DNA of 64,000 nucleotides from the IMG/VR virus record IMGVR_UViG_3300029286_001711. The stretch is one strand, 5' to 3'. Shown piece by piece: positions 26,299 to 57,586 of the stretch; positions within the stretch are counted from its first letter, which is position 1, and every line of letters starts with the position of its first letter. Source of the stretch: a virus. Lineage: Duplodnaviria; Caudoviricetes. The notes beneath the pieces were generated by a model. That model saw only the letters and a list, made by a program, of their open reading frames with translations, had not been told where the DNA came from and made no database searches. The position numbers and the translations under genes are program-made.

Positions 26299-26754
26299 TT
26301 AATAGAAATAAGGTTTTCCTGACTTTTGAGCGTCCATTCTTTTTCTAGTCATATCTTGTTGTTGATGTTTCATATAATCAACCTTCTTTACTTGTCTCTG
26401 TCTAACCAAGTGATTAGAAATGATTTCTTTAGATTTTCTAACTTTATCTTCAAGTTTACTAAAATCATTAACAATACCGTCGATTTCTTTACTGTAACCT
26501 TCAGCACCAGTTAATTTAGTGTTACATAAATCTTCAAATTTTCTTTTAGCATCTTGAACGACTCTAATAATGTCATCAATTCCAGGTAGTACACCATCAC
26601 CAACTTGTTTTACATTTGGTAATTTTTCTTCTTTTTCCTTTTTTTGAGTTGGTTGACCACCTTGTGCTGGGGCCGGTTGACCTTCATCTTCCTTGATGAT
26701 TTTCTTCACCAATCTTTCTATATCGTTTTCGTTAAGTCTAATTACTTTTTTCAT
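26299..26754 (-). CDS. Putative head-associated protein (likely start MKKVIRLNE at 26754)
   Basis: Leader MKKVIRLNENDIERLVKKIIKED; late element 16 nt upstream. Confidence 0.7.
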   Translation of the reverse strand: MKKVIRLNENDIERLVKKIIKEDEGQPAPAQGGQPTQKKEKEEKLPNVKQVGDGVLPGIDDIIRVVQDAKRKFEDLCNTKLTGAEGYSKEIDGIVNDFSKLEDKVRKSKEIISNHLVRQRQVKKVDYMKHQQQDMTRKRMDAQKSGKPYFY

Positions 26755-26770
26755 GTGAAATTCTTTTATT

Positions 26771-26778
26771 ATAAATAT
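26771..26778 (-). promoter_or_regulatory. Putative late element ATATTTAT
   Basis: ataaatat on +, upstream of 26754. Confidence 0.7.
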
Positions 26779-26808
26779 TTGGTAGTTAATAAAAAATTCG
26801 TACATTTG
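26778..26808 (+). promoter_or_regulatory. Bacteroidota-type housekeeping promoter TTTG-N19-TACATTTG
   Basis: -33 TTTG at 26778-81 and -7 TAnnTTTG at 26801-08; ATG at 26813. Confidence 0.75.
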
Positions 26809-26812
26809 TATA

Positions 26813-27049
26813 ATGTTAAAATTTAATGTTGGTGATAGGGTTAGAAGGTTGAATGGATTACCATTTGATTGTAGTAACAGTCACGTAGGGAAAGTTGTTG
26901 GGTTGAAAGAATCTTGGGTTGAAATCGAAGGAGAAATCTATACCACCCCACACGGTCACGTAAAGACAAATTATTTTAACCCATATTTTTTAGTTAAAGT
27001 TGAGTTAGCTACAAAATTCATTAAAAAATATAATTTCATTAAAAATTAG
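26813..27049 (+). CDS. Small hypothetical protein (KOW/SH3-like)
   Basis: FNVGDRVRR start; host-type promoter. Confidence 0.6.
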   Translation: MLKFNVGDRVRRLNGLPFDCSNSHVGKVVGLKESWVEIEGEIYTTPHGHVKTNYFNPYFLVKVELATKFIKKYNFIKN

Positions 27050-27111
27050 TTGACAGAATCGAATAAAATCAATAAGTTTAATATATAAAATAAATAACCC
27101 CGTTTCAAATT

Positions 27112-27870: not shown

Positions 27871-27894
27871 TCTTTAAAAGATATATGATAATAT

Positions 27895-27930
27895 AAAAAA
27901 GGGAGGGTTTACAATACTCTCCCTTTTTTT
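27895..27930. terminator. Intrinsic terminator
   Basis: AAAAAAGGGAGGGT-ttacaat-ACTCTCCCTTTTTTT. Confidence 0.8.
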
Positions 27931-27941
27931 ATTTTTATTAA

Positions 27942-28567: not shown

Positions 28568-28586
28568 TTCTTCATATCTTTGTCTT

Positions 28587-28853
28587 ATGAAAGACATGAA
28601 ATTCAAAACCCTTAAAGAACAATACACTGAAATGATGGCTAATAAAATAGCTGTTAGTGTTGAGGACTTAACTGACAATGAAAGAAAACTCATTGAAGCT
28701 GGTTATGAGTCTTTTAAGGAAAAACTTGAGGATATTAAAATTATCGGTGATGATTTTAAAAGAGTTTCCGTTGAATTAGCTAACTTAAAATCTTACCAAG
28801 ACGACAGTAATCGTGATAGGTGGTATAAAGATGGTGATGACGATGATGATTAA
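28587..28853 (+). CDS. Hypothetical protein
   Basis: Preceded by TATCTTTG (28575-82), a Bacteroidota -7 box. Confidence 0.7.
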   Translation: MKDMKFKTLKEQYTEMMANKIAVSVEDLTDNERKLIEAGYESFKEKLEDIKIIGDDFKRVSVELANLKSYQDDSNRDRWYKDGDDDDD

Positions 28854-29287
28854 TCGTTTATATCGTTTAGATACTGTCTAATACTTCTTCTAAGTACTGG
28901 CGTATTAATTTCACTAAAAACAGTAACAAGTTCTTGGTATAACTTATTAACTAGGTATTTCTTATTTTCGTCAATAAAATAAGGTTTATCATCGACTACT
29001 ATGTAAACTTTATTATCATAGGCTTCAATCATATCGGTTTGCCACCTACCTATAACATAGTTATCTTCTAAATATTTTATCACATTATATTCAACCCCAA
29101 AAGGATCACCAATCCAATCGAAATCATTTTCTTCAGATTCTTTTAAGTATTTTTTGGTGTTATCCACCCCACATTTATGGCAAACATATGGATCATCACC
29201 ACCTTCAGATAATTTCCAAGACCACCCACATTCACAAGTAACTGATTTGACCTCTTCTTTTAATATTTTCTTAATTAAATCCCTCAT
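28850..29287 (-). CDS. Putative head-associated protein with a Zn-ribbon module
   Basis: MRDLIKKILKEE-CECG..CHKCG-YLKESEENDFDWIGD. Confidence 0.7.
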   Translation of the reverse strand: MRDLIKKILKEEVKSVTCECGWSWKLSEGGDDPYVCHKCGVDNTKKYLKESEENDFDWIGDPFGVEYNVIKYLEDNYVIGRWQTDMIEAYDNKVYIVVDDKPYFIDENKKYLVNKLYQELVTVFSEINTPVLRRSIRQYLNDIND

Positions 29288-29357: not shown

Positions 29358-31094
29358 TTATCTTAACTCTCTGATATCAAAAGTACGTAAACCGTCAACT
29401 CTGATGTGTCCGTAGAAACGGTTATTAACCATTTTCTTAGCGTAACGAGTCATGATACCTTTAACAGGTACGAAGTTAAACGGATTGTACATTGTAGGCG
29501 TAAGCTGCATCGGCACGTATGGTGCGTAGATGTAACCAGTGTCTAACAATGACTTACCTTTGTGTCCAATCAATACTGAGTATGATGGAGAATATGGGTC
29601 ACGATATACACTGTAACGTCCAGAAAGTGAACCGATTCTCTCGATACCCATGTTATACTGATCTTGCTCAGGAGCTGCGTTTGATACGTGGAAGTACTCT
29701 AAGTCATCCATTACCGCTGATACTTCAGACGATACAACAACGAAGTTAGCACCACCTCTTAAAGTAGCTTTGTGAATTTGAGCTGAGATTTGATTGATAG
29801 CTGTAATCAATGTCTGGTTCCAATCTTTTTGAGTGTAACCATTGTTGTTTGGTAAACGCTTCCAACCGTTGTAATCCCAACGTAATTGCCATGCCGCACC
29901 TTTACGTAAATCCATTAAGATTTCACGGTCAATTTCAGCTGCAACTTGCTCTGATAATAAAGCTGTTAATTCAGCTTCTGCATCAATGTTGTGGAATGCA
30001 CTAACGTCTTGAGCTAATTCAGGAGTCCAAGTAGCTCTTAACTTTCTTTCAGTAACGGAAACTGTTACAGATTCAAGTTCGAACGATACTTCACCCATTT
30101 CTGAAGTCATTTCAAGATCTTCGTACTGTCTCCAAGTAATCGCTACTGAAGCGTTAGTGATTGTAGTTGCTGTGTAGTTAGCTCCGATGTAACCATCAAA
30201 ACTACTTCTTTGACAACTAACACAAGTTGGATGAGTTAAATCTAGGTCGATATTAAGTTTTCCGTCTGGAGTACAAATATCACCATAGTCAACAATACCT
30301 CTACCGTATTTTTGAGTTAACAAACGGAAAGGAACAGTATTACCAACATTAAAAATTACTTGACCATCGATGTCAGTAATTGTTGTGTTTGCGATAACAG
30401 TTAATGAAGCTAAGAAAGATTCAGTATCCATCTCATTTCCATCAGGACCGATTAAACGACCAGGAGCTGAGTTGTTGAAACCAGTTACCTGAACGATTTG
30501 GTTACGTAATGAACCATCTGATGCTGCTGGAGTTTTACCTGCTGTAAGATTGAAACCACCAGTACAAGCTGTCCAAGTTACCGAAGTACCTGAAGCGATT
30601 TTTACTGTGATATTACCTTTTGACTGGTCAAACATACCATCATTATAGAATCTATCGTAAAGATTCTTTGCACAATTACCGAATACTGCTTCTGGACAGT
30701 TAACACATTCTGCTACATACATTGAATTGTGTGTACCATCTGAGTTTCTATCAGAAGTCTTAGGTACGAAGTAGAACAATTTACCGATAGGTAAGTTCAA
30801 AGCTTGTACTGATACGATGTCGTTCGCTAATAATTTAGAGAATACACGTCTAACGATAGGGAAAACTACAGTCTCGAAAGAACCAGTAGATTGACCACCA
30901 GCTGCTTGAGTTGACTCGTTAATAAGAACTGATGCTTGGTTTTCATATAACAAAGCGATGTTCTCTCTAATGTGGCCTTCTAAGCCCTCAAGGAATCCTA
31001 ATGAATCCCATTTGTTTACAGTTGCCTCACGGATAGCCTTTTGGTGCTTTAATCCGATATTACCAACTTCACCTGATTTTAATAAATATCCCAT
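29358..31094 (-). CDS. gp23: Major capsid protein, T4 gp23-like
   Basis: PIVRRVF..L.ANDIVSVQ.L..P.G, RKLRA.WT.ELAQD, ELTALLSEQVAAEIDRE, YAPYVP, KGIMTRY. Confidence 0.97.
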   Translation of the reverse strand: MGYLLKSGEVGNIGLKHQKAIREATVNKWDSLGFLEGLEGHIRENIALLYENQASVLINESTQAAGGQSTGSFETVVFPIVRRVFSKLLANDIVSVQALNLPIGKLFYFVPKTSDRNSDGTHNSMYVAECVNCPEAVFGNCAKNLYDRFYNDGMFDQSKGNITVKIASGTSVTWTACTGGFNLTAGKTPAASDGSLRNQIVQVTGFNNSAPGRLIGPDGNEMDTESFLASLTVIANTTITDIDGQVIFNVGNTVPFRLLTQKYGRGIVDYGDICTPDGKLNIDLDLTHPTCVSCQRSSFDGYIGANYTATTITNASVAITWRQYEDLEMTSEMGEVSFELESVTVSVTERKLRATWTPELAQDVSAFHNIDAEAELTALLSEQVAAEIDREILMDLRKGAAWQLRWDYNGWKRLPNNNGYTQKDWNQTLITAINQISAQIHKATLRGGANFVVVSSEVSAVMDDLEYFHVSNAAPEQDQYNMGIERIGSLSGRYSVYRDPYSPSYSVLIGHKGKSLLDTGYIYAPYVPMQLTPTMYNPFNFVPVKGIMTRYAKKMVNNRFYGHIRVDGLRTFDIRELR

Positions 31095-31123: not shown

Positions 31124-32506
31124 TTATTTTTTATAATTGTATTCCCAAAGTTTCTTCATTTCTTTTAACTCTGGATGTACAAAGACGCTTTGTTCACTAA
31201 TTTGTGATGCCCCACTTGAAGCCGTTTTGTTAATCTTCTCGTCGATTGACTCCTTAATTGGAGCTTTACCACTTGAATATTCCTTCATCAGTTGCTTATA
31301 AATAGACTGTGATTCTTTAATGCTCTTAGCACCATCAAGTCTTTTTAAAATTTCTTGTTTTTCGTCTTTTGTAGTGGAATTCTCAGTAAATAGTCTTACA
31401 GCGTAAGTAAGATTACTATTAAAAACTGCTACTTCTTGAAGTTTAGTTCTGAACTGTTTAAGAGCGTCAACCATTTTATCGTGATTCCCTTTAAGTTCTT
31501 TGTTCTCATTTTCAAGAGTTAGGTTTTTTGTATTTAAACTTGTATTTTCTTTTCTAAGTTTTATAACTTTAGATTCAGTCACACTCTCATGTGTAATACC
31601 CGCTCTAGAACCTTGTCCTTGTTTAATACGCTTGTATTTTAAATTATGAGACATGTAATCAGTATCTTTTGGCCCACTCATGTATGACATATTATCTTCA
31701 TTTTCTTCTTCTTCTTCACCAGCTTCGAATTCCATAGATTCGGTAGATTCGTGTCCATAAGACTCACCATCTTCATCATCATCTACTACAATTTCGTAGA
31801 TGATTCCCTCTTCTAAAGTATCGTTGTCAGTGCCTTCACCTAATTCAAGTTCTGGTTCCATTTCGATTTCAGAAGTTTCAACACTTCCAATTCCTTGACC
31901 ACCACCTGCGTTAAGTTCGATACGATATTCTGAACCAGATTTATTATCTTTTAAGGTTACCATTCCGTTGTCATTTACAACTTCGATTTCATCTTCTGGG
32001 CCCATTTTCTTAAAAACAGAGATTACATCGGAGTCACTAGCACCTGTAAGGTCCATAGTTTCAACATCAGTTTCGTCACCTAGACCTAAGTCAGTGTTAT
32101 CCTCACCGCCGAAATCAAGACCACCTAAATCAGTGTCTTCACCTCCGTCGTCAAGTCCACCTAAGTCTAAGTCAATATCTTCAGTGTCATCTAAATCTTC
32201 GTCCTCGTCTCCAAGTTCAAGATCTAATTCACCTTCAATACCTTCTTCACCTTCTGTGTTTTCGTCCTCATCACCTTCTCCTTCAACTTCGTCATCAGAA
32301 TCCAATTCTAAGTCCAAATCTAATTCATCCTCTTCCTTCAAATTCCTTTTTTTCTTCGAACCAGTTAATGATTCCTTTACCATTTCTTCAATTTCTGAAC
32401 CCATTGTGTGAGCCAGTATTTCTTTTGCGTTGGATTTGAAAGTGGCGTCAATTTGTGATGCCTCAAGAAGAGCTTCCTCAATAATCGATTTCTTTTCGTT
32501 TGCCAT
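31124..32506 (-). CDS. gp22: Prohead core scaffold protein, gp22-like (ATG at 32506)
   Basis: Very acidic centre, coiled-coil C-terminus, many LxE sites; directly upstream of the capsid gene. Confidence 0.75.
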   Translation of the reverse strand: MANEKKSIIEEALLEASQIDATFKSNAKEILAHTMGSEIEEMVKESLTGSKKKRNLKEEDELDLDLELDSDDEVEGEGDEDENTEGEEGIEGELDLELGDEDEDLDDTEDIDLDLGGLDDGGEDTDLGGLDFGGEDNTDLGLGDETDVETMDLTGASDSDVISVFKKMGPEDEIEVVNDNGMVTLKDNKSGSEYRIELNAGGGQGIGSVETSEIEMEPELELGEGTDNDTLEEGIIYEIVVDDDEDGESYGHESTESMEFEAGEEEEENEDNMSYMSGPKDTDYMSHNLKYKRIKQGQGSRAGITHESVTESKVIKLRKENTSLNTKNLTLENENKELKGNHDKMVDALKQFRTKLQEVAVFNSNLTYAVRLFTENSTTKDEKQEILKRLDGAKSIKESQSIYKQLMKEYSSGKAPIKESIDEKINKTASSGASQISEQSVFVHPELKEMKKLWEYNYKK

Positions 32507-32637: not shown

Positions 32638-32645
32638 ATATTTAT
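32638..32645 (+). promoter_or_regulatory. Putative late element ATATTTAT
   Basis: 5 nt before ATG 32651. Confidence 0.7.
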
Positions 32646-32650: not shown

Positions 32651-33124
32651 ATGAAAAGAAACATTAAAAATATCTTAAGAGAATTTACTGAAAACCGTAT
32701 CAAAACTGAGAATTTTGATAAAAAAGTAGATTATATGCAAAAGAAAGCAAAAGAAAATTCAAACTATCCTGAGGCTACAGAAAAAGTTAGTTACATGAAA
32801 GATAAGATAGAAAAAGATGTTAGAGACGCATATATTGATGTAACTGGTGAAGAACCCGTTAATGATGAAATTGTTATTACCGTTGATGATAACATTAAAG
32901 ACGGTAAGATTGGATCATTCAAACATCCAGAAAATGGAAAAGACCTTGGAGATATGAAAATACACCCCAAGGCCTTAAAAGATACAGAATACGTTAAAGA
33001 TATTATTAAACACGAATTAATTCATGCAGCTCACGGAGTTGAAGACACCGAAGGTAGAAACCATGGTGGTGTGTTTCAAAAAGTGGCTGACCGTGTTGGT
33101 TTACCTAAAAAATATCGTAATTAA
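32651..33124 (+). CDS. SprT-like zinc metallopeptidase
   Basis: IIKHELIHA...NHGGVFQ (HExxH + HG..F). Confidence 0.75.
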   Translation: MKRNIKNILREFTENRIKTENFDKKVDYMQKKAKENSNYPEATEKVSYMKDKIEKDVRDAYIDVTGEEPVNDEIVITVDDNIKDGKIGSFKHPENGKDLGDMKIHPKALKDTEYVKDIIKHELIHAAHGVEDTEGRNHGGVFQKVADRVGLPKKYRN

Positions 33125-33372
33125 GATTTAGATACCACCTTAACTGGTTCAGGAACTGTAACAACATCTTCAATGTCACTCTTAGTTGCCCCAACTACTT
33201 CATAATCCAAAACAGAATCCTTTAAATACAAACGTACACGAGCCTCAGCTTCAGTACAAGTCATTGCATCCACAAGATACTTAGTTTTAATTTTTTTTAA
33301 TTTACCATTTTGTTCGTTAATTGTTTCGAACTCAACCTTTACAAGGTAATACTTTGCTACATTATCTTCCAT
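33121..33372 (-). CDS. DUF4494-family protein
   Basis: YLVDAMTCTEAEAR; family typical of Bacteroidota. Confidence 0.75.
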   Translation of the reverse strand: MEDNVAKYYLVKVEFETINEQNGKLKKIKTKYLVDAMTCTEAEARVRLYLKDSVLDYEVVGATKSDIEDVVTVPEPVKVVSKS

Positions 33373-33456: not shown

Positions 33457-33924
33457 TTACTCTTCGTTATCTAAATCTCTTGGAGTAGGTTTACCGCCTC
33501 TAAGATGACCTAAATGTTTCTTCTCTACATTAATAAGTGACTCTCTTAATTTTTTTAAGGGTTCATCCATAGATGTTAAAAAACTTTCCATTTCTTTTCT
33601 AAAAGTATCGTCTAACATATCTGAATGAACGTTTTCAATACCTTTTAAAGCCTCAACAATTTTATTATAATTTCCTTTTACAATACCTAGATACGCACCA
33701 GCGTGTTGTGCGTACATATTGGGGTCGTCATAACCACCAATTTCATTAATTCTACTTTCTTTTATTATATTATTTTTGTGTTTTTCTATTATAGATTCAA
33801 CACTTTCATAACCTCTTTTATCTACCGATTTAAGTTTATCTAAGAAAGTATTTAAAGACATATCCAATAATTTAGGATTCCAATCTTCTCCGTGGTGTTC
33901 TTTAAGTCTTCGGTTGTTTTTCAT
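33457..33924 (-). CDS. Putative head-associated hypothetical protein
   Basis: RRLKEH and IIKESRINEIG motifs; late element at 33993-34000. Confidence 0.7.
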   Translation of the reverse strand: MKNNRRLKEHHGEDWNPKLLDMSLNTFLDKLKSVDKRGYESVESIIEKHKNNIIKESRINEIGGYDDPNMYAQHAGAYLGIVKGNYNKIVEALKGIENVHSDMLDDTFRKEMESFLTSMDEPLKKLRESLINVEKKHLGHLRGGKPTPRDLDNEE

Positions 33925-34005: not shown

Positions 34006-34818
34006 TTATCTTAAAAAATTATTTAATCCTTGTAATAATTTTTGATTTTTCGTGTTGGTAATATCAGTGAAGGGGATTGTTGTTGGCTTATATTCTTCTA
34101 CTAAGCTCCATTGACAAGTGTATCCATTACAACCCATTTTATTTTCTACCGATTCAGTATATGTTTTTAAATCTGAAGAATCTGAAGATATCCACGAACC
34201 TGGGGTTGATGGTGAAGTTACAATATCCCAACAAATTAATTCGAAGTCGTCTTGAACAACATTCTTACCACCTTCTTGTTTAAGGGATCCAACACCACGA
34301 GATGAAATACCAACTGTCCAACCTTTTCTAATCATGTTGACAACCTTGTCACCGACAGAACTAATAACACCTAATTTATGATAACCTGGGGTAGTATCTA
34401 GTTCTAATTTACCCATTAAGGTTTTACCTTCCCACCAAGTTTCTGTGATTCTATGCGAAACTCTATCAGCATCAATGATTGATGATTCTGGGTGGTTTAA
34501 TTCACCAAGTGAGGTTCCCATTTTAATATATTCTTGATATCTATCATTTTCTCTTTCAAGAATCTCTTTAGGATATATCCTTCCGTTTTTATTTTCAATA
34601 CCCCATTTTTGAAGTACGGCATAAACAATAACCACATCAGGCAAACTACCGTCTTTACCGATATTTGTACCTGATTTAAATTCATTTAATGTTAATAAAT
34701 GTTCTTTAATTAAATCGGAATTCTTTCTACCTTTGTATGTTAAATCAGGGGAAATGTATCCAGAGTCGTATTCAACTAAAATACCTTTACCTGTATCACC
34801 TGGTCTTAAAATTTTCAT
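34006..34818 (-). CDS. gp21: Prohead maturation protease, T4 gp21-like (ATG at 34818)
   Basis: GELNHP, GISSRGVGSL, DFELICWDIVTSPS (His/Ser/Asp triad). Confidence 0.95.
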   Translation of the reverse strand: MKILRPGDTGKGILVEYDSGYISPDLTYKGRKNSDLIKEHLLTLNEFKSGTNIGKDGSLPDVVIVYAVLQKWGIENKNGRIYPKEILERENDRYQEYIKMGTSLGELNHPESSIIDADRVSHRITETWWEGKTLMGKLELDTTPGYHKLGVISSVGDKVVNMIRKGWTVGISSRGVGSLKQEGGKNVVQDDFELICWDIVTSPSTPGSWISSDSSDLKTYTESVENKMGCNGYTCQWSLVEEYKPTTIPFTDITNTKNQKLLQGLNNFLR

Positions 34819-34834: not shown

Positions 34835-34863
34835 ATAAATATGCCATAAATATCGATATTTAT
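34835..34863. promoter_or_regulatory. Divergent late-element cluster containing the perfect 18-bp palindrome ATAAATATCGATATTTAT (34846-34863)
   Basis: Three copies of the motif between the divergent protease and CCA genes. Confidence 0.75.
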
Positions 34864-34868: not shown

Positions 34869-36809
34869 ATGAAGAATGTGGTTAGAAAAATCTTAAAAGA
34901 GAATGATTTTGATTGGGTCGGTGATATATTAAATTCAGAATATTTCCCTGCAACACCAGATATGTTAACCGTAGGTACAAAAATTATTGTAGACGGACGT
35001 GAATTAGATGATGATGAAATTACCCTGGATGAATGGGAAATGGAACCTGGAACTATAATTTCTATTGAAAAATACAATGATAATGATATTATATTAGTTA
35101 AATTTGATAATTGGATTAGTCCAGAGGGTAACAATATTGTCTTAAACTCCAGCCCAATGTGGAAAAATAAAAGGGAGGAATGTGCCGGAGATAATTGTTG
35201 GTCTTTTGTGAGAGAATATAGAAAATACCCCAATGAAGTTGATATTGACATATACTTACTAAACCCTAATTATAAAGAAAAATTGAAAGAAGAAACTATA
35301 AGAAGAGAATTAAAAATGGAACTACCAGATTCCGTATTAAGAATGAACCGTATTTTTAAAGAAAACGGTCATGAATTATATGTTGTTGGTGGTGCTGTTA
35401 GAGATTTATTAAATAAACAAGAGCCAAAAGATTTTGATTTGGCAACTGATGCTACACCAGAAAAAGTTAAATCCATGTTACGTATGTATCGTACGATAGA
35501 TATGGGGGAACAATTCGCTATTGTTAATGTTGTTACAGAAAATGGTCAATATGAGATTGCCACATTCCGTAAGGATATTGGTAAAGGTAGAAGACCCGAT
35601 TCAGTAGAGTATACTTCAATCGACCAAGATGTATTACGTAGAGATTTAACAATGAATGCTCTTTTCTATGATATAGATAAGGGTGAAGTAGTTGACTTGG
35701 TTGGTGGTATTGGTGACATAGAAAGTAACATAGTTAGGACCGTTGGTTCCGCATCCGAACGCTTTGATGAAGATAAGTTACGTATACTTAGAGCACTTAG
35801 GTTTGCAGCTAGAGTGGGTTCTGAATTAGATAAAGACATTATTGATGCAATAACCAAAGATAAAACACCCATTAGTGGTAATGGTTTACCGTTATCTCAA
35901 GAAAGAATTAGAGATGAATTTTTAAAAGGTATTAAACAGGCACAATCTGTTGGTTATTTTACTCAGATGATTGACAAGTATAATTTATGGGATTGGATAT
36001 TCTCACGTCTAGTAGTTACAACGGAACCAATGATTGAGACTAAAAATCCTTTAATATTAATAGCTACTTTATTGAGAAGTAACGATGTTAGATTAGTTGA
36101 AAAAACTTTAGTTGACAGACTTAAGTATACTTCAGACGAGGGTAAACAGATTAGTTTCTTAATACAGTTTTTAGGTTTAAACTCTAGTAATGCATTTAAA
36201 TTGAGGGAAAAATTTGAAACTAGTAAATTAGATGAAACAACTTTAATTGATTTCGCTAGATTTAACGGTATGAATATGAAATTAGTCGAAGCTTTCATAA
36301 AATATCGTATTACTACATCTGGTGATGCTCTTAAAAGAAGGGGGTTAGTGGGTAAGGAAATTGGTAATGAAAAGGAGAGATTAGAAAAAGAGATTTTTGA
36401 TAAACTCATAACCGAATCTAAAAGAAGTGTCTCCTATTCAGCTATAGTATTAACTGAAGAATCTAGAAGTAGACTACTTGAGTACGTTAAGACACCTGGT
36501 AATGATTTATTTGCAACTTGGGAAACTTTAGCTCACCATATGACTATTAATATGGGACCATTAAAAGATGAATACCGACCATTATTAGGTCAGTCATTTG
36601 ATTTATTGATTACTCACATCGGTAGAACGGATAAAGTTTTAGCTGTTAAAGTAGATACCGAATTTAGAACCAAAAATTTAAACCCGCATATTACTGTGGC
36701 GGTAAATAAAGGTGAGGGTGGTAAACCAGCAATGGCAAATCAAATAGACCAATGGACCCCTGTATACCCTTTCGAAGTGGAAGGTAAACTAGAAGAAATA
36801 TATTTCTAA
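34869..36809 (+). CDS. cca: CCA-adding/poly(A) polymerase-family tRNA nucleotidyltransferase with an N-terminal extra domain and a C-terminal 2H phosphoesterase
   Basis: VGGAVRD..DFDLATD, RRDLTMNA, RFDEDKLRILRALRF; C-terminal HHMTI and PHITV (two HxT motifs); no HD domain. Confidence 0.9.
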   Translation: MKNVVRKILKENDFDWVGDILNSEYFPATPDMLTVGTKIIVDGRELDDDEITLDEWEMEPGTIISIEKYNDNDIILVKFDNWISPEGNNIVLNSSPMWKNKREECAGDNCWSFVREYRKYPNEVDIDIYLLNPNYKEKLKEETIRRELKMELPDSVLRMNRIFKENGHELYVVGGAVRDLLNKQEPKDFDLATDATPEKVKSMLRMYRTIDMGEQFAIVNVVTENGQYEIATFRKDIGKGRRPDSVEYTSIDQDVLRRDLTMNALFYDIDKGEVVDLVGGIGDIESNIVRTVGSASERFDEDKLRILRALRFAARVGSELDKDIIDAITKDKTPISGNGLPLSQERIRDEFLKGIKQAQSVGYFTQMIDKYNLWDWIFSRLVVTTEPMIETKNPLILIATLLRSNDVRLVEKTLVDRLKYTSDEGKQISFLIQFLGLNSSNAFKLREKFETSKLDETTLIDFARFNGMNMKLVEAFIKYRITTSGDALKRRGLVGKEIGNEKERLEKEIFDKLITESKRSVSYSAIVLTEESRSRLLEYVKTPGNDLFATWETLAHHMTINMGPLKDEYRPLLGQSFDLLITHIGRTDKVLAVKVDTEFRTKNLNPHITVAVNKGEGGKPAMANQIDQWTPVYPFEVEGKLEEIYF

Positions 36810-40331: not shown

Positions 40332-42266
40332 TTAAAATTCTTCTTCATCTTCTTTATCTTCATCACCGATTAGGTTTTTTATACCTTCAGTCATCATCAT
40401 AATATCTTCGTTTTTACGTCTACCTTCTAATAAAAGTTTATCAATTATGTTCTTATCCTGATTACGGAAACCCTCTCCGAATCCACCTGTTTCAGGTGTT
40501 CCAGCCTCAGGACCACCAACCTCTTCTCCGCCTAGACCAGCATCTTCTCCACCTAAACCAGCATCTTCTCCACCTAAACCAGCATCTTCATCTCCACCAA
40601 AATCGAGACCACCGCCTCCACCTCCGCCGAAACCTCCACCACCTAAATCCATTCCACCTTCATCTCCACCACCTTCTTCGGTACCAGCTGTTGCTTGTTC
40701 ACCACCACCAATTTCACCGTAAAGACTATCAACTCTATTAAAGAATCCAGTCTTTTTAATTATAGACGCGGTATTCTCTAATTCAGCTGATGCGGCCCTT
40801 TCCATTCTTTGTTGTTCAAGGTCAGTTTTAATATCCTCATCAGTCCAGTTAAAGATGTTTTTCTTCGCCCAAGTATGTGATGATGGAGCAATACCACCAT
40901 CAACTTGTGAAACTAAATCTTTATAAAGTAAAACTTTTTCTTTCCATTGTTCTACTTTCAACATCTCACCTTGAGTAGATGGGTTGGTTAGATTTAAAGT
41001 GAAATTATTTAAATCATCTGTAAAACCTAAAATATATAAATGAATAATAGCTAATTTATTCAATTCCTGAATCATTGATTGTTGAATACGGTTAATAGTT
41101 CTAGCAAAACGTATATCTAACAAGGCTAAATTTTTTCCGTCACCAGCTGCCTCATCAAAACCTAAGAATGGTTTTGGTACTCTAAGAGCTGTTAATAACT
41201 TTTTCTGAATATATTCAATGTCAGCAATTTGGTCCAAATTACTGGCACCCGCCAACGTTTCAATTGGGTTTGGTGCGTTTGGATCTCTAACGGGAACAAA
41301 ATAATCTTGGTCGACTGCTAACGTATTATAACGTAAATCAACCTGACCAGTTTTTTGGTCTACAACCTGATTTCTTTTGAATTTATTAGCTACTTTTTGT
41401 ACGTAAGCATCAACGTCTTTATCATCAATGTTACCCACATATATTTTAAATACACGTCTTTCTGGTGCTCTTACAACACGATAAACTAACATTGCATCTT
41501 CAGAAAGTAATAATTGTTTCCAAATTCTTCTTGCTTTCTCTAAAACGGAAGTACCGTACGGTAATCTTCTATCATCACCCAATAATCTAAAATGGGCAAC
41601 TTCCCATGGGTTAAAATCTAAACTTTTATCACGCCAGTGGAAGGTTACTTGTTTTTTCTTAGTTGTAGCTCCATCACTTTCTTTAGTTTGTTGTGGAAAC
41701 ATACCTTCTTCCTTACGTTCCATCTCAATATTAGTTAACTGAGATGAACCGATAATACCTCTAGAGTGGTCAATTTTTAAGAATACAAAATTATCACCAT
41801 ACTTACACGTATTACGAGTCCACATTGGTAAGTTAGTTTGAATATCTATAATATTATAAAATAAATCTTCTAATACGTTTTTAACTCTTTTTGAATTTGA
41901 TTGAATAGTTAAAACCTTCCCTTGTTCACTTGGTGTACAAGATTCTTCGGACATAATATCTAAAGCGGCAGCTATTTCTGGTGTAAATTCCATTGCCTCA
42001 TAATCCATATATGACGCAATTCTTGATGTTTCGTAATAGACGGCTTTTTGGTACAATTCACTATCAACCCTAGCCCATTGAGCTTCAAGATAGTTTTGTT
42101 GTTGTCCTTCTAATTTTTCCTTTTCATACTGTTGCTTAGAGTTAGTGGTGATTACATCACCGTCACCTAAAGTGTATTTAGGGGTTGTTCTTTGAACTGG
42201 TTTGTTTTGTCCAAACAAGTAGAAGAGTTTTTGATATACTGTTAAATCTTTATTATTATCTGCCAT
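40332..42266 (-). CDS. gp20: Portal protein, T4 gp20-like
   Basis: YMDYEAMEFTPEIAAALDI, EDAMLVYRVVRAPERRVFKIYVGN, QDYFVPVR, LLTALRVP; late element at 42298-42305. Confidence 0.96.
   Translation of the reverse strand: MADNNKDLTVYQKLFYLFGQNKPVQRTTPKYTLGDGDVITTNSKQQYEKEKLEGQQQNYLEAQWARVDSELYQKAVYYETSRIASYMDYEAMEFTPEIAAALDIMSEESCTPSEQGKVLTIQSNSKRVKNVLEDLFYNIIDIQTNLPMWTRNTCKYGDNFVFLKIDHSRGIIGSSQLTNIEMERKEEGMFPQQTKESDGATTKKKQVTFHWRDKSLDFNPWEVAHFRLLGDDRRLPYGTSVLEKARRIWKQLLLSEDAMLVYRVVRAPERRVFKIYVGNIDDKDVDAYVQKVANKFKRNQVVDQKTGQVDLRYNTLAVDQDYFVPVRDPNAPNPIETLAGASNLDQIADIEYIQKKLLTALRVPKPFLGFDEAAGDGKNLALLDIRFARTINRIQQSMIQELNKLAIIHLYILGFTDDLNNFTLNLTNPSTQGEMLKVEQWKEKVLLYKDLVSQVDGGIAPSSHTWAKKNIFNWTDEDIKTDLEQQRMERAASAELENTASIIKKTGFFNRVDSLYGEIGGGEQATAGTEEGGGDEGGMDLGGGGFGGGGGGGLDFGGDEDAGLGGEDAGLGGEDAGLGGEEVGGPEAGTPETGGFGEGFRNQDKNIIDKLLLEGRRKNEDIMMMTEGIKNLIGDEDKEDEEEF
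40521..40589 (-). repeat. About 3 tandem 21-nt repeats encoding GGEDAGL in the portal tail
   Basis: ccagcatcttctccacctaaa at 40537 and 40558, partial copy at 40579, variant at 40521. Confidence 0.9.
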
Positions 42267-46691: not shown

Positions 46692-49232
46692 CTAATCTCT
46701 ACGTTTTTTATTACGTAACATTCTGAAATCTTCAGAATCCAAATCACCACTATCATTCATATCCAATTTATATTGGTTACCAACAAGTTTACCCTTTTTT
46801 CTAGCTTTCGGAGAAGGTTCTTCACCTGGCGTAATGTACGGCGGTGGTGTAAACGGTCTCTTAGACGGGTTTGGTCTGTCAGTATCTGGTTTTCCAGGTT
46901 TTGTTGTTGGAGCCGGTGTTGTACTTGGTTTTGATGGTGCTGTCTTTGGACTCATAGGGTTAAATCTTCTATTGTTTAATGGTAAATTATCGTCATTATC
47001 TGACATATAATCAAGGCCATTTCTTTCTCTATAGTTGTATTTAAAATCCCCATTATTATTAATATTAGTTATATCACGATTAACATCACCACTAACCCTA
47101 CCAGTACCAGCACATGCTATACAAGTATTTGGTCTAGTGCTGAATCCGATTTTTTTCTCTTGGCCAGTACCGTTACATATTGGACAAGTATCGTCATCTT
47201 CCATATAACCCATACTCTCGTTTGAACCATAATCATCTGCCATATAGTCCATATAATCCTCTTCAAACTCATCTTCATATTCTGCCTTTGGAGAAGGTTC
47301 TTCACCTGGCGTAATATATGGTGGAGGTGTAAAAGGACGTTTACTAGGGTTAGGTCTATCTGTATCTGGCTTTCCTGGTTTTGTTGTTGGAGCTGGAGTT
47401 GTGCTTGGTTTTGATGGTGCTGTTTTTGGCATCATACTTGGGACGTTATCGATATCCATCATATAGTCCGACATAAAATCTGTTTTAGATTTCACATACT
47501 CAACCATTTTACCTATCTCATCAAAATTAAAATATTTTTTCTTAGAACCACCTTTTTCAACAGTAAAATTATTACGGTCAATACGAATAAAATAGTTATC
47601 ACCTACAAGATGATCATCATCAATATCAACATCACCACCTAATTTACCTTTAACATAACGTAAAAGTTTGTCAACGTGACCTTCATCGTATCCACCCTTC
47701 ATTTTATTAACGGTTCCTTGAATGTTCATGTAATCTGTCATGTTATCAATATCTTCAACACCATCAGCGGTATAATTACCGTATAAATCTTCATCCCTAT
47801 CGTCCATATAATCTTTATTAACTTCACTATACGGGTAGGTATCATCAGACATCCAATCTTCTTCAAAATCAGGATAACCGCTTGTTTCGGTTTCATATTC
47901 ATCATAAGGTAATTCCTCATCAAAAAGTAATTGACCATCGATGTCTTCATCACCACCGATATTTGGGTTGTCTTCTCTCATCCAATCAGTCATGAAATCC
48001 TCATCTGGGTCATCATAGTCTAAACCAGAATTACCAACATAAACCTCTTCATCAACGTCAACCTCTTCTGGCGAAAACATCATATACTGATTTTCACCAG
48101 TTCTTCTATAAGAATTATCTTCATCATCAACGTTATAATTATTGGTCTCCCAATCCATCATAGGTTTTTCATTATCACCAGGATAAACATCAACATCAAC
48201 ATCTCCACCACCATAAGTTGTAGAAACAAGACCTTGTTTTTCTTCGTCAGATAAACTATTCCAATCTAAAGTTGTGTCATCAGTAACACCAGTGCCACCA
48301 CAATTTACACAACCTTCCATTTCGTCATCATAACCACTTCCTTGACAACCTGGACAATCATCGTCACCCATGTAATCCTTATCAGTTTCACCATATAAAT
48401 CACTAGCAGTTAATATATTAGATGACCCACTATCGTCACCCATGAAATCAAATTCCTCATCGGAACCTTCATCTTCTTTTTTCTTAACCGCACGAATAAT
48501 ATCTTTTTTATCTTCACTATCCATAGATTCTAAATCTAAGGCTGAAATAATACTCTTAGCAACCCACTTCATTGTATCTGAAGATAAGTCTTCAGTGTCT
48601 CTAATTTTCTGACCTAATTTACCAGTCATTTTTTGAATACTTTTAATAGGATCATCTTCATCACTTAAGTCTTCATCACCTAAAGTCATATTCTCATCTG
48701 AATCACCTTTTCCAAAATCAAAATCAGGGGCCTTATCTTCACCAGTATCACCGAAATCAAAATCAGGAGCCTTATCTTCACCAGTGTTTCCAAAATCAAA
48801 ATCAGGAGCCTTATCTTCACCAGTGTTTCCAAAATCAAAATCAGGGGTTGAAGATGGTTCAGATTTCTTTTTCGATTTAAGAACAAATCTCTTTTCCTCG
48901 ATTATATCTGAAGAAAGGATATCAGTACCTTTTTCTACGTTGAAAGTTTTGTTTAAATCTTCAAACATAAAATTAAGTTCTCTTACCGCTTCTTCATATG
49001 AATGGTATTGGTATTTTGGTTTATTAGCGACACCGCCGATAAAATCAAAATTCTTACCATCATTAGATTCTTTAATGAAATATTTTCTATTTTCTCTTAC
49101 AATACCGTAAGCTTTCCCATCTGGTGATTTTTTCACCAATTCTACGGCTGAATTTGATATACTCTCATTAACAGGTGTTTTACCCATCAATTCTCTCATT
49201 CGTTGTAAGTTTTTATTTGTTAGATTACTCAT
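46692..49232 (-). CDS. Large acidic, repeat-rich putative internal head protein
   Basis: 846 aa with a PVNES leader, DFDFG repeats, two DnaJ-type CxxCxGxG pairs, a duplicated Pro-rich block and a C-terminal EF-hand-like loop. Confidence 0.75.
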   Translation of the reverse strand: MSNLTNKNLQRMRELMGKTPVNESISNSAVELVKKSPDGKAYGIVRENRKYFIKESNDGKNFDFIGGVANKPKYQYHSYEEAVRELNFMFEDLNKTFNVEKGTDILSSDIIEEKRFVLKSKKKSEPSSTPDFDFGNTGEDKAPDFDFGNTGEDKAPDFDFGDTGEDKAPDFDFGKGDSDENMTLGDEDLSDEDDPIKSIQKMTGKLGQKIRDTEDLSSDTMKWVAKSIISALDLESMDSEDKKDIIRAVKKKEDEGSDEEFDFMGDDSGSSNILTASDLYGETDKDYMGDDDCPGCQGSGYDDEMEGCVNCGGTGVTDDTTLDWNSLSDEEKQGLVSTTYGGGDVDVDVYPGDNEKPMMDWETNNYNVDDEDNSYRRTGENQYMMFSPEEVDVDEEVYVGNSGLDYDDPDEDFMTDWMREDNPNIGGDEDIDGQLLFDEELPYDEYETETSGYPDFEEDWMSDDTYPYSEVNKDYMDDRDEDLYGNYTADGVEDIDNMTDYMNIQGTVNKMKGGYDEGHVDKLLRYVKGKLGGDVDIDDDHLVGDNYFIRIDRNNFTVEKGGSKKKYFNFDEIGKMVEYVKSKTDFMSDYMMDIDNVPSMMPKTAPSKPSTTPAPTTKPGKPDTDRPNPSKRPFTPPPYITPGEEPSPKAEYEDEFEEDYMDYMADDYGSNESMGYMEDDDTCPICNGTGQEKKIGFSTRPNTCIACAGTGRVSGDVNRDITNINNNGDFKYNYRERNGLDYMSDNDDNLPLNNRRFNPMSPKTAPSKPSTTPAPTTKPGKPDTDRPNPSKRPFTPPPYITPGEEPSPKARKKGKLVGNQYKLDMNDSGDLDSEDFRMLRNKKRRD
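46804..47429 (-). repeat. Two copies (46804-46949 and 47284-47429) of a 146-nt segment encoding an identical 49-aa Pro-rich peptide
   Basis: Direct comparison; the copies are 480 nt apart. Confidence 0.95.
48711..48846 (-). repeat. About 3.5 tandem 39-nt repeats encoding PDFDFG(N/D)TGEDKA
   Basis: aaaatcaaaatcaggagccttatcttcaccagtgtttcc unit. Confidence 0.93.
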
Positions 49233-49541: not shown

Positions 49542-50341
49542 TTTAAAATGTTTTTATATAAATATCTGTTATGTTCCAATGTTACTGATTTATCGTAAGC
49601 AACTGTTTTAATGTCAGAAAGTCTATCTAACATACCGTTACGTCTTAAAACTTTGAATACCATGTTCTCTACTGAAAACTCACCATTAGCATCTAAACCA
49701 GCTTGACGCATTTTTTTAATTTTATCTTTAATTTTGTCAGATTTCTCAACTACAGAATCGTAATTCTTAGAATCTTTCATTTCATGAAAAAGATCATCAA
49801 TAGCATCCATAATACGTTCTGATTTTAATTTAACGTTTATGTTATCGATTTTAATTGGTTTTTTCTCTGGTTGAACTACCCATTCATTTCTTAATATAGA
49901 ATAAACACCAGTAGATACGTGTTCTTCTTTGATGTCTTGTACATATATTTCAATATCAAAGCCATAAATTTTTATATCATGAGAATCGTTCCAAGCTGTG
50001 CTTTTAGTTTTTAAAAAGTCTTGAATTAAAGTCTCATCAACGGGAACCTCTGTATAATCAATAAGGATATGTAAATCTACATCGGAGTATTTAGACCAAT
50101 TATAATTAGCCAAACTTCCTGTTAAACAAATATCTTCGATATCAACCCCAGGAAGTTCCAATCCTTCAAAATAATCATCAGCAATTTTAAGTAAGGTCTT
50201 TCTAACTTCTGGTTGTAATTTTTGGTTCTCATCCCAGATTTTTGGGTTTAAGGCATCTTGCATTTTAAAACCAGTTAAATCTATCGACCTATCACTTTTA
50301 CCGACTTTCTTTACTTCTTTTATTTTTACCTTTTCTTTCAT
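49535..50341 (-). CDS. Pol-beta-superfamily nucleotidyltransferase
   Basis: LTGSLANYNWSKYSDVDLHIL (GS...DxD) and DIEIYVQD. Confidence 0.8.
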   Translation of the reverse strand: MKEKVKIKEVKKVGKSDRSIDLTGFKMQDALNPKIWDENQKLQPEVRKTLLKIADDYFEGLELPGVDIEDICLTGSLANYNWSKYSDVDLHILIDYTEVPVDETLIQDFLKTKSTAWNDSHDIKIYGFDIEIYVQDIKEEHVSTGVYSILRNEWVVQPEKKPIKIDNINVKLKSERIMDAIDDLFHEMKDSKNYDSVVEKSDKIKDKIKKMRQAGLDANGEFSVENMVFKVLRRNGMLDRLSDIKTVAYDKSVTLEHNRYLYKNILKW

Positions 50342-50348: not shown

Positions 50349-50369
50349 ATAAATATTCATGATATTTAT
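50349..50369. promoter_or_regulatory. Back-to-back late elements ATAAATAT-tcatg-ATATTTAT
   Basis: Between divergent genes 50341(-) and 50378(+). Confidence 0.75.
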
Positions 50370-50377: not shown

Positions 50378-50710
50378 ATGAGAAAAAAGATTATTTTAAA
50401 AGAACATCAAATTAAGAAACTTATTGAAGCCAGAATTAATGATTTCAATGTAGAAGATATTGCTAAACGCCTAGAATCAATTGATTGTTCAGGTGAGGAT
50501 TTAAAGTATTTAGTTACAAATATTCTTAAAAAATACGGATATGAGGGTGTTAAAGTCCTTTTCTTAGGACATGATGAACAAACAAAAGACCTCCGATATG
50601 TTGCTTATACCGAAGGCCCAATATTTGTTTATAAAACTAAATCAGAAGTTAGTCCTGAAGACAGACCTTGTCTTACTGTTTACGAAGTAAAAGTATTCCA
50701 ACAAATCTAA
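50378..50710 (+). CDS. Putative head-associated hypothetical protein
   Basis: Leader MRKKIILKEHQIKKLIEARINDF. Confidence 0.7.
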   Translation: MRKKIILKEHQIKKLIEARINDFNVEDIAKRLESIDCSGEDLKYLVTNILKKYGYEGVKVLFLGHDEQTKDLRYVAYTEGPIFVYKTKSEVSPEDRPCLTVYEVKVFQQI

Positions 50711-55198: not shown

Positions 55199-55202
55199 TA
55201 TT

Positions 55203-55228
55203 AAAACCCCTCTAATGAGGGGTTTTTT
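55203..55228 (+). terminator. Intrinsic terminator
   Basis: AAAACCCCTC-taat-GAGGGGTTTTTT. Confidence 0.9.
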
Positions 55229-55266
55229 GTTTCAAAATAATTCATTATCTTTATAAAAAATAAATT

Positions 55267-55863
55267 ATGGGAATATACGTTAGAAATCGAAAAACATTAG
55301 AGATGAAAAAAGTATCTCACACAAAATTCACAACTTTAATTGCAACATTTTTGGTTGTTTTTTTAATAACTTTAAGAATTGGTTATGGACTTGGATATGA
55401 TGTGGGTAAAAAAACTCAATTAAAAGAAAGTGATGTAGTCCTAATATTCAACGATTTAGAAAATACTAGTTTTACACCCAAAAAATTTTATGAATACTTA
55501 AAACAAGTTAATATTAAATTCCCAGAGATTATATTCGCTCAATCAATGAAAGAGTGTGGTTTTAAATCATCACTTTTTAAAAACAACAATAACCTTTTCG
55601 GAATGAGGGAGGCTAGTAGAAGACCTAATCTACAAAGTGATATCGTAAACGGTTATGGGTATTATGATAATTGGAAATTATCGGTAATTGATTATGCTTT
55701 ATATCAAGCCAACATAGGTGTTAATAAACTTAAAACCGAAGACCAATATTTAGAATTTATTAAGGAAATGGGGTATTTTGATGTTGACCACCCAAATAAT
55801 GTTACCTACCTATCTGACGTAAAATCTATCGCTAAAAATATTGAAAAATATATTAAAGAGTAG
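55267..55863 (+). CDS. Glucosaminidase (FlgJ/GH73-like) peptidoglycan hydrolase with an N-terminal TM segment
   Basis: AQSMKECG, NNLFGM, YxxW..SV.DY, MGY; hydrophobic segment at aa about 22-45. Confidence 0.7.
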   Translation: MGIYVRNRKTLEMKKVSHTKFTTLIATFLVVFLITLRIGYGLGYDVGKKTQLKESDVVLIFNDLENTSFTPKKFYEYLKQVNIKFPEIIFAQSMKECGFKSSLFKNNNNLFGMREASRRPNLQSDIVNGYGYYDNWKLSVIDYALYQANIGVNKLKTEDQYLEFIKEMGYFDVDHPNNVTYLSDVKSIAKNIEKYIKE

Positions 55864-56133
55864 ATCCTGGTTTTTTACCACCATAAGGTACTTTCATAAC
55901 TGGAAATTTATCCCCAGTTAATCTATGACCCTTTCTAGGTAATTCTATTCTATCAATATCATGAAATTGTAAGAATTTTTCTACTTCTGCTTTAAATAAA
56001 TCCATTACTTCACGGTGTGCTAAATCTGGGTGATTTTTTTAATATCAACCATTAATTCAACTAACGTATCTTGAATAGTAGAGGCACCCTCTTTAATTAG
56101 TCTTTGTACTTTTTTATAACCCTCGTTAATCAT
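55853..56133 (-). pseudogene. Small ORF (about 93 aa if repaired) broken by a frameshift in a homopolymer run at about 56034-56040
   Basis: MINEGYKKVQRLIKEG...VDIKK, then NHPDLAHREVMDLFKAEVEKF...KKPGSTL* in the -1 frame; its ATG overlaps the DHH gene stop (ATGATTAA). Confidence 0.6.
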
Positions 56134-57586
56134 TTTGTATATCTTTAGGTTGACCACCAATTTCTGGTGTTATAGATTTTAATTCTTCAAATACAACTAA
56201 TTTAAGTTCTTTTACAAATGAATCTTGTAATTCTTTAAGGAAGAATGTACCCATTTTACCAAAATACATTAAACCCGATATGTTTGTTATACACTTATGT
56301 CCACCACTATTAGCTTGGATTATATCCCAACCAGAGATTGTTAACATTTTAAGTGCTTTTCTTTCTCTATCGTTTAAAGTGGTATATGGTTTATCTAAAA
56401 TCCTTTTTATTGCGTTTTGCCATCTTTCTACTGTGTAATCAGGTGCTGCACCGTTGGGTACTGTATTTAATCCGTTAACTGTTTCACCGTATATAGCAAT
56501 TAAATCGTTATATGTGAAACCAACACTCTCAGCCTCAAAAGATTTATGTTTTTCACCAAAGTATTTTAATGAATCGACAGTTACTCTAAAATCTCTTAAA
56601 GCGGTCTCAGATTTACTTAATACCCTTTGTGCTATTTCCCCTAAGTTAACACCCTTTAATGTTCTTTCAGATTTAAAAGGATTACAACTAGCTTGTAAAA
56701 GACCTAATGGCCATGCAATAACCAAAAAGTTAGCGTCTGGAAAATTCTTGAAGGGAACATAACGGTCATAAGCCCCAGGTTTCATTAGTGGACCACCACC
56801 ATATTGTGATATAATACCAGTTACAGAATCGTATTTAACCTTATCACTGGCTTTCATTGTCTCACCGTAAGCCATAGCGTGTTGAGTCATTACCTCTGGT
56901 GAAATATAACCCTCTTCTTTAGCCAATCCAACTATGTTTTGGTATATGTTTAAAAGAGATGGGGTACAACCCATAACTAGTCTTTCTAAAAATCTCGGTT
57001 TGTTTTTGTAAGCTAACAAAAGTTTATTAGTTACAAGAGCCATGGCTTTCTTATTACTCTCAAGACTTTTTTCTTTATCTAAAGAGAAAACAAACTTCAT
57101 AACCTGCTCTGGTGTAATACCTAACTTAGCATAGTTAGCACTATCTACTGTAGATATCATCAAGACATCCAAATGTGGAAATATTTCTTTTGGTGAAACT
57201 ATTTGTGAGATAGTTTCAACATTAGACCTAGCTTGTCTAAAAGATTTAGAAGTTTCAGCTGATGTACCGATTTGTTTATCGTGGTGGTCAGTATGAATTA
57301 TGAACATAGGTTTACCGTGAGCAAAGTCAACTAAGACTGGCATGATATCACCTTTAGCCATCGGTTTTTTAATAGCAAATTCTCTGTCACCGTATTGGAT
57401 AACTTCACAATCAACCACTTCAATTCCATAACTTTCTAAATAGTTTTTCATTGCAATAGCTGTTGTAACACCATCAGTATCTTGATGAAAATAAATCTTT
57501 GCACTCTCATATCTTTGAGCTAGTTCTTTGATGTTTCTAACACCAGATTCTAAAAGGATATTTTTTTCTAATAGTAAAGTCGACAT
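56126..57586 (-). CDS. DHH-superfamily phosphoesterase (with DHHA1-like GGH)
   Basis: FHQDTDG, LVDFAH, TDHHD, NSGGHK; late element at 57602-57609. Confidence 0.85.
   Translation of the reverse strand: MSTLLLEKNILLESGVRNIKELAQRYESAKIYFHQDTDGVTTAIAMKNYLESYGIEVVDCEVIQYGDREFAIKKPMAKGDIMPVLVDFAHGKPMFIIHTDHHDKQIGTSAETSKSFRQARSNVETISQIVSPKEIFPHLDVLMISTVDSANYAKLGITPEQVMKFVFSLDKEKSLESNKKAMALVTNKLLLAYKNKPRFLERLVMGCTPSLLNIYQNIVGLAKEEGYISPEVMTQHAMAYGETMKASDKVKYDSVTGIISQYGGGPLMKPGAYDRYVPFKNFPDANFLVIAWPLGLLQASCNPFKSERTLKGVNLGEIAQRVLSKSETALRDFRVTVDSLKYFGEKHKSFEAESVGFTYNDLIAIYGETVNGLNTVPNGAAPDYTVERWQNAIKRILDKPYTTLNDRERKALKMLTISGWDIIQANSGGHKCITNISGLMYFGKMGTFFLKELQDSFVKELKLVVFEELKSITPEIGGQPKDIQND

Follow-up and report, generated by a model that had tools for sequence, protein, structure and literature searches.

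Why do unrelated, putatively late proteins of one phage begin alike? The window (the whole stretch of DNA analysed here, 64,000 nucleotides (nt) of the IMG/VR virus record IMGVR_UViG_3300029286_001711) contains many putative late genes whose products start with a basic leader ending in [ILV]-x-E. A sequence-only reading of positions 26299-57586 had proposed that these leaders act as address tags, by which enzymes would be loaded into the prohead, matured by a prohead protease and injected. The answer reached below has two layers. Firstly, some of the leaders belong to two canonical tags (type A and type B), which are N-terminal, portable between proteins and under selection at the protein level. 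Secondly, it is fairly probable (roughly 0.6), judging by sequence comparison, that these tags are capsid-targeting propeptides of the T4 kind, which the S77 prohead protease would cut. This second statement covers several small proteins, a CCA-adding/2H enzyme and a SprT-like protease, but not a DHH-family protein that had also been named as cargo.

The window is part of an uncultivated, T4-like jumbo phage of ~320 kb. It is assigned to a phage of this size because of its synteny with a 318-kb IMG/VR relative, G001, which has an estimated completeness of 96% and serves as the stand-in for whole-genome comparisons. The window itself is AT-rich (~32% G+C). We confirmed 411 relatives in IMG/VR and took the best 80 of these 411 as related loci; together with the window, these yield the 1,481 open reading frames (ORFs) on which the tag statistics are based. 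No close cultured relative was found by blastn or tblastn against 50,697 phage records. The best deposited phages by capsid protein, Flavobacterium phage immuto and Microcystis phage Mel-JY01, reach ~40% identity, and these nearest isolates infect Flavobacterium and Microcystis. A tblastn search of the deposited phage records with the 24-residue type B tag gave no match, for which the low-complexity filter is perhaps responsible.

Two canonical tags on unrelated proteins

The type A tag spans ~11 residues and reads M-K-x-L-I-[KR]-K-I-L-[KR]-E. Type B is about twice as long (~22 residues), reads MKKVIRL[NT]E[SN]D[IL]ExLVK[KR]II[KR]E and contains two candidate cut sites. In the window, type A is found at the gene starts 29287 (-), 32651 (+) and 34869 (+); type B is found at 26754 (-), with a diverged, B-like copy at 50378 (+). 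The tagged and possibly tagged proteins are listed below, where ATATTTAT is a promoter-like element described in the next section, aa stands for amino acids, and a slash here and throughout marks a candidate cut site or junction.

26689..26754, minus strand: 22-residue type B tag, MKKVIRLNENDIERLVKKIIKE, at the head of a 151-aa protein (gene 26299-26754)
29255..29287, minus strand: type A tag MRDLIKKILKE, heading a 145-aa zinc-ribbon protein (gene 28850-29287), with ATATTTAT 7 nt upstream
32651..32683, plus strand: type A tag MKRNIKNILRE, heading a SprT-like metalloprotease (gene 32651-33124)
33457..33924, minus strand: conserved head-operon protein with the degenerate leader MKNNRRLKE, just downstream of the protease gene
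34869..34901, plus strand: type A tag MKNVVRKILKE followed by NDFDWV, heading the 646-aa CCA-adding/2H fusion
49164..49232, minus strand: possible, non-canonical leader of an 846-aa protein, ending PVNE23/S; KPVNE is kept in G001
50315..50341, minus strand: weak, non-canonical leader MKEKVKIKE (VKIKE9) of a nucleotidyltransferase (gene 49535-50341), kept in G001
50378..50428, plus strand: diverged type B-like leader MRKKIILKEHQIKKLIE of a 110-aa protein, kept in G001, with ATATTTAT 8 nt upstream
56126..57586, minus strand: DHH-family gene with the non-canonical start MSTLLLEKNILLES; the DHH/RecJ match begins at residues 15-17

The loose motif and the strict tags carry different weight. Within 26299-57586, 12 of 36 genes have [ILV]-x-E in their first 12 residues, compared with 3 of 39 outside (Fisher p=0.008). 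The excess over the frequency expected from composition (17.5%) is significant (binomial p=0.016). This enrichment is real but modest, and weak by itself. The strict signal is far sharper: a 7-residue core occurs at protein positions 8-14 in 72 cases against 1.1 expected from its internal rate, and the strict core is ~60-fold enriched at N-termini. In 67 of the 72 N-terminal matches the tag Glu is residue 9 or 11, and nearly all deeper copies of the core are either the second half of type B or products of miscalled starts. Across the genome of G001, 22 of 403 ORFs bear the strict tag.

The tags sit on proteins that share little else. Once the tag is removed, the bodies form 54 clusters for type A and 16 for type B (blastp, E<1e-3), giving ~70 BLAST-distinct tagged bodies across the clade; the tag of the 26754 protein alone recurs on 16 distinct bodies in relatives. 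We rejected the idea that type B marks a single paralogue family, since its bodies form those 16 clusters. Gene content also varies between close relatives. The two types are interchangeable, because both occur on one body: most relatives have type A on a GGYDDP protein encoded beside the protease gene, and one relative has type B there. In the window this is the gene at 33457-33924. Its leader is degenerate here, which weakens the earlier claim of a tag at 33924, but its orthologues bear a canonical type A (MNIRKIIKEELL) or type B tag on the same GGYDDP body.

What is conserved is the peptide rather than the DNA. Among tags on different families, codons at identical tag residues agree in 56% of cases, as against 57.4% expected from codon usage, and the flanking DNA lies at background identity both in the 30 nt upstream (0.33) and in the 33 nt downstream (0.32). 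Codons at general usage and flanks at background indicate selection on the peptide, not recently copied DNA; a mobile promoter-plus-leader cassette was rejected as the origin of the tags on the same grounds. The SprT-like family illustrates the point: a hydrophobic-x-E ending at residues 8-18 is kept in 26 of 26 distinct orthologues, while the basic residues drift.

The individual leaders that had been listed as examples fared unevenly: the claim that many late genes share such leaders holds in the form of the loose enrichment and the sharp tags, but several of the cases are weak. The CCA/2H enzyme (34869) and the SprT-like protease (32651) are indeed tagged, both with type A. The latter is a protein of 157 aa with HELIH at residue 121 (Pfam SprT-like, E=4e-6). 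The type B protein starts at the internal Met of position 26754 rather than at the first ATG (26805), and a promoter-like element lies upstream of this Met at 26771-26778. The leader at 49232 is conserved in G001 but non-canonical, and that at 46268 is conserved there only loosely (KFVNEE compared with KLREIEE), making it a weak case. The supposed leader at 56133 belongs to a 37-codon ORF of doubtful reality. Two proposed cargo enzymes are not supported: the leader of the nucleotidyltransferase (weak NTP_transf_2 and MTPAP-like matches) is weak and non-canonical, and the DHH protein (57586) was rejected as unsupported, given its non-canonical start and a domain that begins at about residue 15. 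The DHH orthologue of G001 (about 108,900-109,100) is frameshifted in motif I (YFHQD), through either an assembly error or a broken gene. The small tagged proteins had no match in Pfam, PHROGs or NCBIfam, protein atlas searches returned only scores <0.9, and most other tagged proteins are likewise without a family match.

The head module and the promoter-like element

The window carries a T4-type head module on the minus strand, and its gene order is conserved in relatives:

29358-31094, minus strand: gp23-type major capsid protein (Pfam Gp23, E=2e-71)
30915..31094, minus strand: capsid propeptide with a predicted cut at LINE60/S, by homology with T4 gp23
31124..32506, minus strand: acidic scaffold-like protein starting MANEKKSIIEEALLEA, between the protease and capsid genes, a conserved position
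34006..34818, minus strand: S77 (T4 gp21-type) prohead protease (Pfam PF03420, E=6e-29, above the cut-off)
34835..34863, no strand assigned: back-to-back ATATTTAT elements between the divergent protease and CCA genes
40332..42266, minus strand: gp20-type portal protein (Pfam Portal_T4, E=1e-75)
42585-44408, minus strand: large terminase

The protease shares 32% identity with T4 gp21, and its residues at the positions of His85 and Ser140 in the alignment are conserved. Alignment of its family reveals two conserved sites, L-I-x-E/F ahead of the catalytic domain and [FY]-[TM]-E/S near the C-terminus (YTE/S in the window). Proteases of the gp21 type process themselves, and the sites in this family match such self-processing.

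In the capsid protein, the proposed site LINE60/S is supported by homology with T4 gp23. Residue 61 of the window protein aligns with residue 11 of mature T4 gp23, and the two N-termini read IFENQ...GSFLTE65/AEIGG in T4 and LYENQASVLINE60/STQAAGG here. Every intact N-terminus among 52 related capsid-protein ORFs shows L-[IL]-x-E followed by a variable linker. The tags end in hydrophobic-x-Glu, as does this predicted capsid site. The scaffold-like protein is, as had been suggested, rich in the motif, with 17 [ILV]-x-E sites against 8.7 expected. Searches returned no family match for this protein, and it is assigned by position and composition.

The protease also accompanies the tags in a wider sample. 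Among 16 further IMG/VR records recovered with a type B profile, eight contain S77, where 6.1 would be expected from record completeness if the protease were universal; it is present in both of the most complete records (89% and 76%). This co-occurrence is consistent with a functional link but not independent evidence for one, because the tag-bearing records appear to form one clade.

A second thread connects the tags with the head genes. The element ATATTTAT is present in 23 copies in the window (21079-63350), 19 of which are on the coding strand and at most 70 nt upstream of a start. It precedes the portal, terminase, protease, scaffold and tail-like genes and most tagged genes; upstream of the starts of the glycan cluster it was not found. 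The related word GATATTTAT occurs 11 times, against 2.5 expected. The earlier claim that tag and element go together is borne out in G001, where the element stands ahead of 11 of 21 tagged genes but of 16% of the remaining genes (odds ratio 5.7, p=2.6e-4). A similar division holds for the loose motif, which is seen in 47% of the G001 genes behind an element and in 17.6% of the others (p=7e-7), the latter figure being the composition expectation. In addition, the head operon has one to six tagged genes in the interval from protease to scaffold, and in more distant relatives tagged genes directly follow the capsid gene.

Several observations concern the element itself. Often no more than 5-17 nt separate its end from the ATG (5 nt at both the SprT and the CCA gene), at many starts the distance is 5-30 nt, and examples are found at 32638-32645, 34856-34863 and 50362-50369. 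If ATATTTAT is a -10-like late promoter, the resulting mRNAs would be leaderless or nearly so. The capsid gene opens ATGGGATATTTATTA, with the promoter-like word GATATTTAT at 31082-31090 (-) inside its first codons (MGYLL); this MGYLL start is common to the closer relatives, and more distant ones have MSHLL or MGHLL.

Other features of the neighbourhood are recorded here. A homologue of GlnII-type glutamine synthetase (37279-38433, minus strand) occupies a conserved place in the head operon, between portal and protease. Its NCBIfam match (E=8e-112) scores 373.6 bits, under the 500-bit family cut-off, and since a head operon is an odd site for a metabolic enzyme, it may be a different, ATP-grasp-like ligase. 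Nearly all relatives keep a small DUF4494 protein (33121-33372, minus strand, in the window) in the place between the tagged core protein and the SprT gene. The large terminase of G001 (126549-129707) has 1,052 aa, compared with 607 aa in the window, and the portal proteins of three related loci (L012 3049-7452, L070 3691-8028 and L052 36-3164) have 1,042-1,467 aa, compared with 644 aa; these oversized proteins suggest inteins or other large insertions. Finally, a 73-codon ORF at 57858-58079 (-) overlaps the RecA/RadA-like gene at 57898-58914 (+), has no homologue in G001 and is probably not a gene.

The CCA/2H enzyme and its internal junctions

One canonically tagged protein of the window is the product of 34869-36809 (+), 646 aa in length. 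It matches Pfam PolyA_pol (E=4e-35) and an NCBIfam CCA model (E=2e-53, but below the equivalog cut-off), and has the motifs of a class II nucleotidyltransferase: GGAVRD at residue 174, DFD at 188 and RRD at 257. By sequence, CCA-adding and poly(A) polymerase activities are indistinguishable here. The C-terminal ~130 residues form a 2H domain, with HMT at residue 557 and HIT at 607; profile support for it is weak in the window (tRNA_lig_CPD, E=0.05) and better for a separate gene in the related locus L037 (E=8.5e-5). We read the protein as a putative fusion that would both add CCA to tRNA ends and heal them.

How the tag is attached to this enzyme differs between relatives. In L004 and L007-L010 it is joined straight to the CCA catalytic domain; in the window and G001 it stands before one or two extra modules; in the CCA family member of L037 it is absent. 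Hydrophobic-x-Glu sites recur at the places where such modules meet:

29114..29149, minus strand: junction YLKE50/SEENDFDW of the zinc-ribbon protein, between its zinc-ribbon and C-terminal modules
35283..35294, plus strand: junction KLKEE (residues 138-142), which separates the CCA core from the extra N-terminal module
36405..36419, plus strand: junction LITE516/S, between the CCA body and the 2H domain

Comparison with relatives gives these sites their interest. The internal KLKEE/TIRRE of the window aligns with the N-terminal tag ILKEE/VVRKK of the CCA orthologue in L004, and LITE516/S aligns with the boundary between the separate CCA and 2H genes of L037 (its counterparts are IKE in G001 and MNE in L004). 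Inside other proteins of the relatives, the motif [ILVM]-x-E/S-E-E-D-F-D-W separates modules that have no other similarity, and an 871-aa protein of G001 has four or five such junctions. In the window this motif is seen at YLKE50/SEENDFDW of the zinc-ribbon protein and again immediately behind the tag of the CCA enzyme. Hydrophobic-x-Glu thus stands exactly where modules join or split, as expected of polyproteins that are processed by a protease. The junctions suggest that tailed phages can use such polyproteins, which is unusual for them. In three relatives (L003 7328-9947, L011 7290-9951 and L041 7488-9951) the CCA gene is in two pieces: a tagged, 139-aa N-terminal part, and a part of ~430 aa that starts just before the GSGRRPD motif.

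Capsid targeting as the probable role, its rivals and known systems

Under the capsid-targeting reading, events would run as follows: (i) a short, basic, amphipathic N-terminal helix of either type brings a late-made protein into the core of the assembling prohead; (ii) the S77 protease cuts after the Glu of the terminal hydrophobic-x-Glu, the kind of site at which it would also cut capsid protein, scaffold and its own chain; (iii) multi-module proteins, such as the CCA/2H fusion, are split at their internal junctions inside the head; and (iv) the matured cargo remains beside the DNA and probably accompanies it into the host. Core binding, cleavage, retention in the virion and injection of the tagged proteins are steps that we infer. 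In favour of the propeptide function proposed earlier are, circumstantially, the homology of the protease, the likeness of the leaders to those of T4, portability, the place of tagged genes in the head operon and the shared element; the parts of that proposal that lack support are DHH and nucleotidyltransferase cargo.

Several points weigh against this reading. The loose motif also heads unlikely cargo, for example the large terminase. In G001, many tagged genes are remote from the head module, and the promoter-like element stands directly ahead of only 11 of the 21. Co-occurrence of tag and S77 is confounded by shared ancestry, given that all tag-bearing records appear to belong to one clade, and a ClpC-like ATPase, which 9 of 10 related records contain, accompanies the tags just as closely as S77. 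Literature searches yielded no proteome of any relative, and a large protein search with the tag region returned unnamed metagenomic proteins only. A complex prediction that paired residues 1-235 of the protease with the N-terminal 40 residues of the CCA protein scored 0.00 and speaks neither for nor against binding.

Alternatively, tag and junction could be a structural or oligomerisation helix for some non-capsid complex, or the first helix of a loosely related module family, with neither cleavage nor packaging involved. The tag pattern, as read from the sequence, does suggest an amphipathic helix (hydrophobics at i, i+1, i+4 and i+5), and an acidic-F-D-W-[AV] motif, which could begin a small fold, directly follows 25% of type A tags compared with 0.6% of untagged N-termini. 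However, BLAST shows no relation between the tagged bodies, the tag is nearly confined to the extreme N-terminus, where its distance from Met1 is fixed, and the CCA-to-2H junction is a gene boundary in L037, which fits a separable unit better than an element of a fold. We consider a purely structural role unlikely.

The ClpC-like ATPase raises a different idea, namely that the tag is a signal for another machine—the ClpC/ClpB-like unfoldase of the phage (52673-55198, plus strand) or a host Clp—and serves as an N-terminal degron or adaptor that times late accessory proteins. N-terminal motifs of the form Met-basic-hydrophobic are known recognition signals of ClpX, and because the ATPase is as conserved as S77, co-occurrence by itself is equally compatible with a Clp-related role. 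Such a role leaves unexplained the invariant terminal Glu and its match to the capsid and protease cut sites, the junctions at module boundaries, and the position of tagged genes inside the head operon; to us, it is distinctly improbable. In distant records, the match to this double AAA+ ATPase begins at about residue 160, and so the Clp_N domain seems to be missing there.

An effect of translation or composition (nearly leaderless late mRNAs, AT-rich first codons for Lys, Asn, Ile and Leu, and chance [ILV]-x-E) would suit the Lys-rich N-termini (15% of residues 2-12, against 8.7% overall), the promoter-like element 5-30 nt from many starts and the only about twofold loose enrichment in the window, but is very unlikely for the canonical tags, in view of the ~60-fold N-terminal enrichment of the strict core, an ordered sequence with invariant Glu and Arg encoded by both AGA and CGT, tag codons that follow general usage, and a loose motif that stays at composition level in genes lacking the element; for the weak cases 46268, 56133 and 57586 it is possible.

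Returning to capsid targeting, a more ambitious version would extend to the clade as a whole: T4-like phages of ~300 kb that use two interchangeable tags and a cleavable junction to load, split and inject dozens of proteins, some of them polyproteins. Their cargo would include a repair kit for tRNA 3' ends (CCA plus 2H) and a SprT-like protease, acting before phage gene expression, for instance against tRNA-damaging defences. This wider proposal is tentative, and on balance we doubt it. Should the tags indeed serve in loading, the principle of the T4 internal proteins would widen from three small proteins to a large, modular, fast-evolving set that includes enzymes delivered with the DNA. Enzymes that repair tRNA ends would become a new class of pre-packaged counter-defence, given how early in infection tRNA-targeting host defences act. 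The tags would also make the injected proteome of uncultivated phages predictable by a simple rule based on sequence, and would be a candidate portable label for loading foreign proteins into the capsids of these phages.

The closest known system is the capsid-targeting sequence (CTS) of the T4 internal proteins IPI, IPII and IPIII. There, too, a leader of ~10 residues starts with MK, ends in hydrophobic-x-Glu (IPII and IPIII have MKTYQEFIAE) and heads otherwise unrelated, fast-changing proteins, in a genome with a gp21-type protease and a gp23/gp20 head. Among T-even internal proteins the CTS is the sole shared part, and it can load foreign proteins into the head (PMC3012670). The leader of T4 gp24, MAKINELLRE, resembles type A. 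Beyond the MK start and the [IL]-x-E end, however, the tags show no sequence similarity to the CTS; judged from the sequences, the likeness is one of function, not ancestry. The tags differ further in that there are two interchangeable types, one of 22 residues with two candidate sites, in the far larger number of bodies (the 22 ORFs of G001 and ~70 bodies across the clade), and in the nature of these bodies, among which are large enzymes and proteins of several modules with internal junctions.

For cargo as large as a 646-aa enzyme, T4 Alt sets a precedent: it is an ADP-ribosyltransferase of 682 aa that, according to the annotation in the T4 record, resides in the capsid and enters together with the DNA. 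Whereas Alt modifies the RNA polymerase of the host, the tagged enzymes here are a CCA-adding/2H fusion for tRNA-end repair and a SprT-like metalloprotease; we know of no report of either as virion cargo. Two further systems are analogous in principle only. In viral polyproteins, a viral protease frees unrelated modules by cutting short conserved linkers, and in encapsulins a short, portable peptide suffices to load cargo into an HK97-fold shell. Giant phages of the SPN3US and phiKZ-like type have head genes that are only distantly T4-like, a different cleavage motif and long propeptides, with no short, shared N-terminal tag. They are alike in that, as two reports describe, the prohead protease cuts many of their head proteins, and protein is packaged and ejected in large mass (PMC7411985, PMC10052503). 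The principle, then, is known from T4; what is new is the pair of interchangeable tags, the scale, the candidate enzyme cargo and the polyprotein-like junctions.

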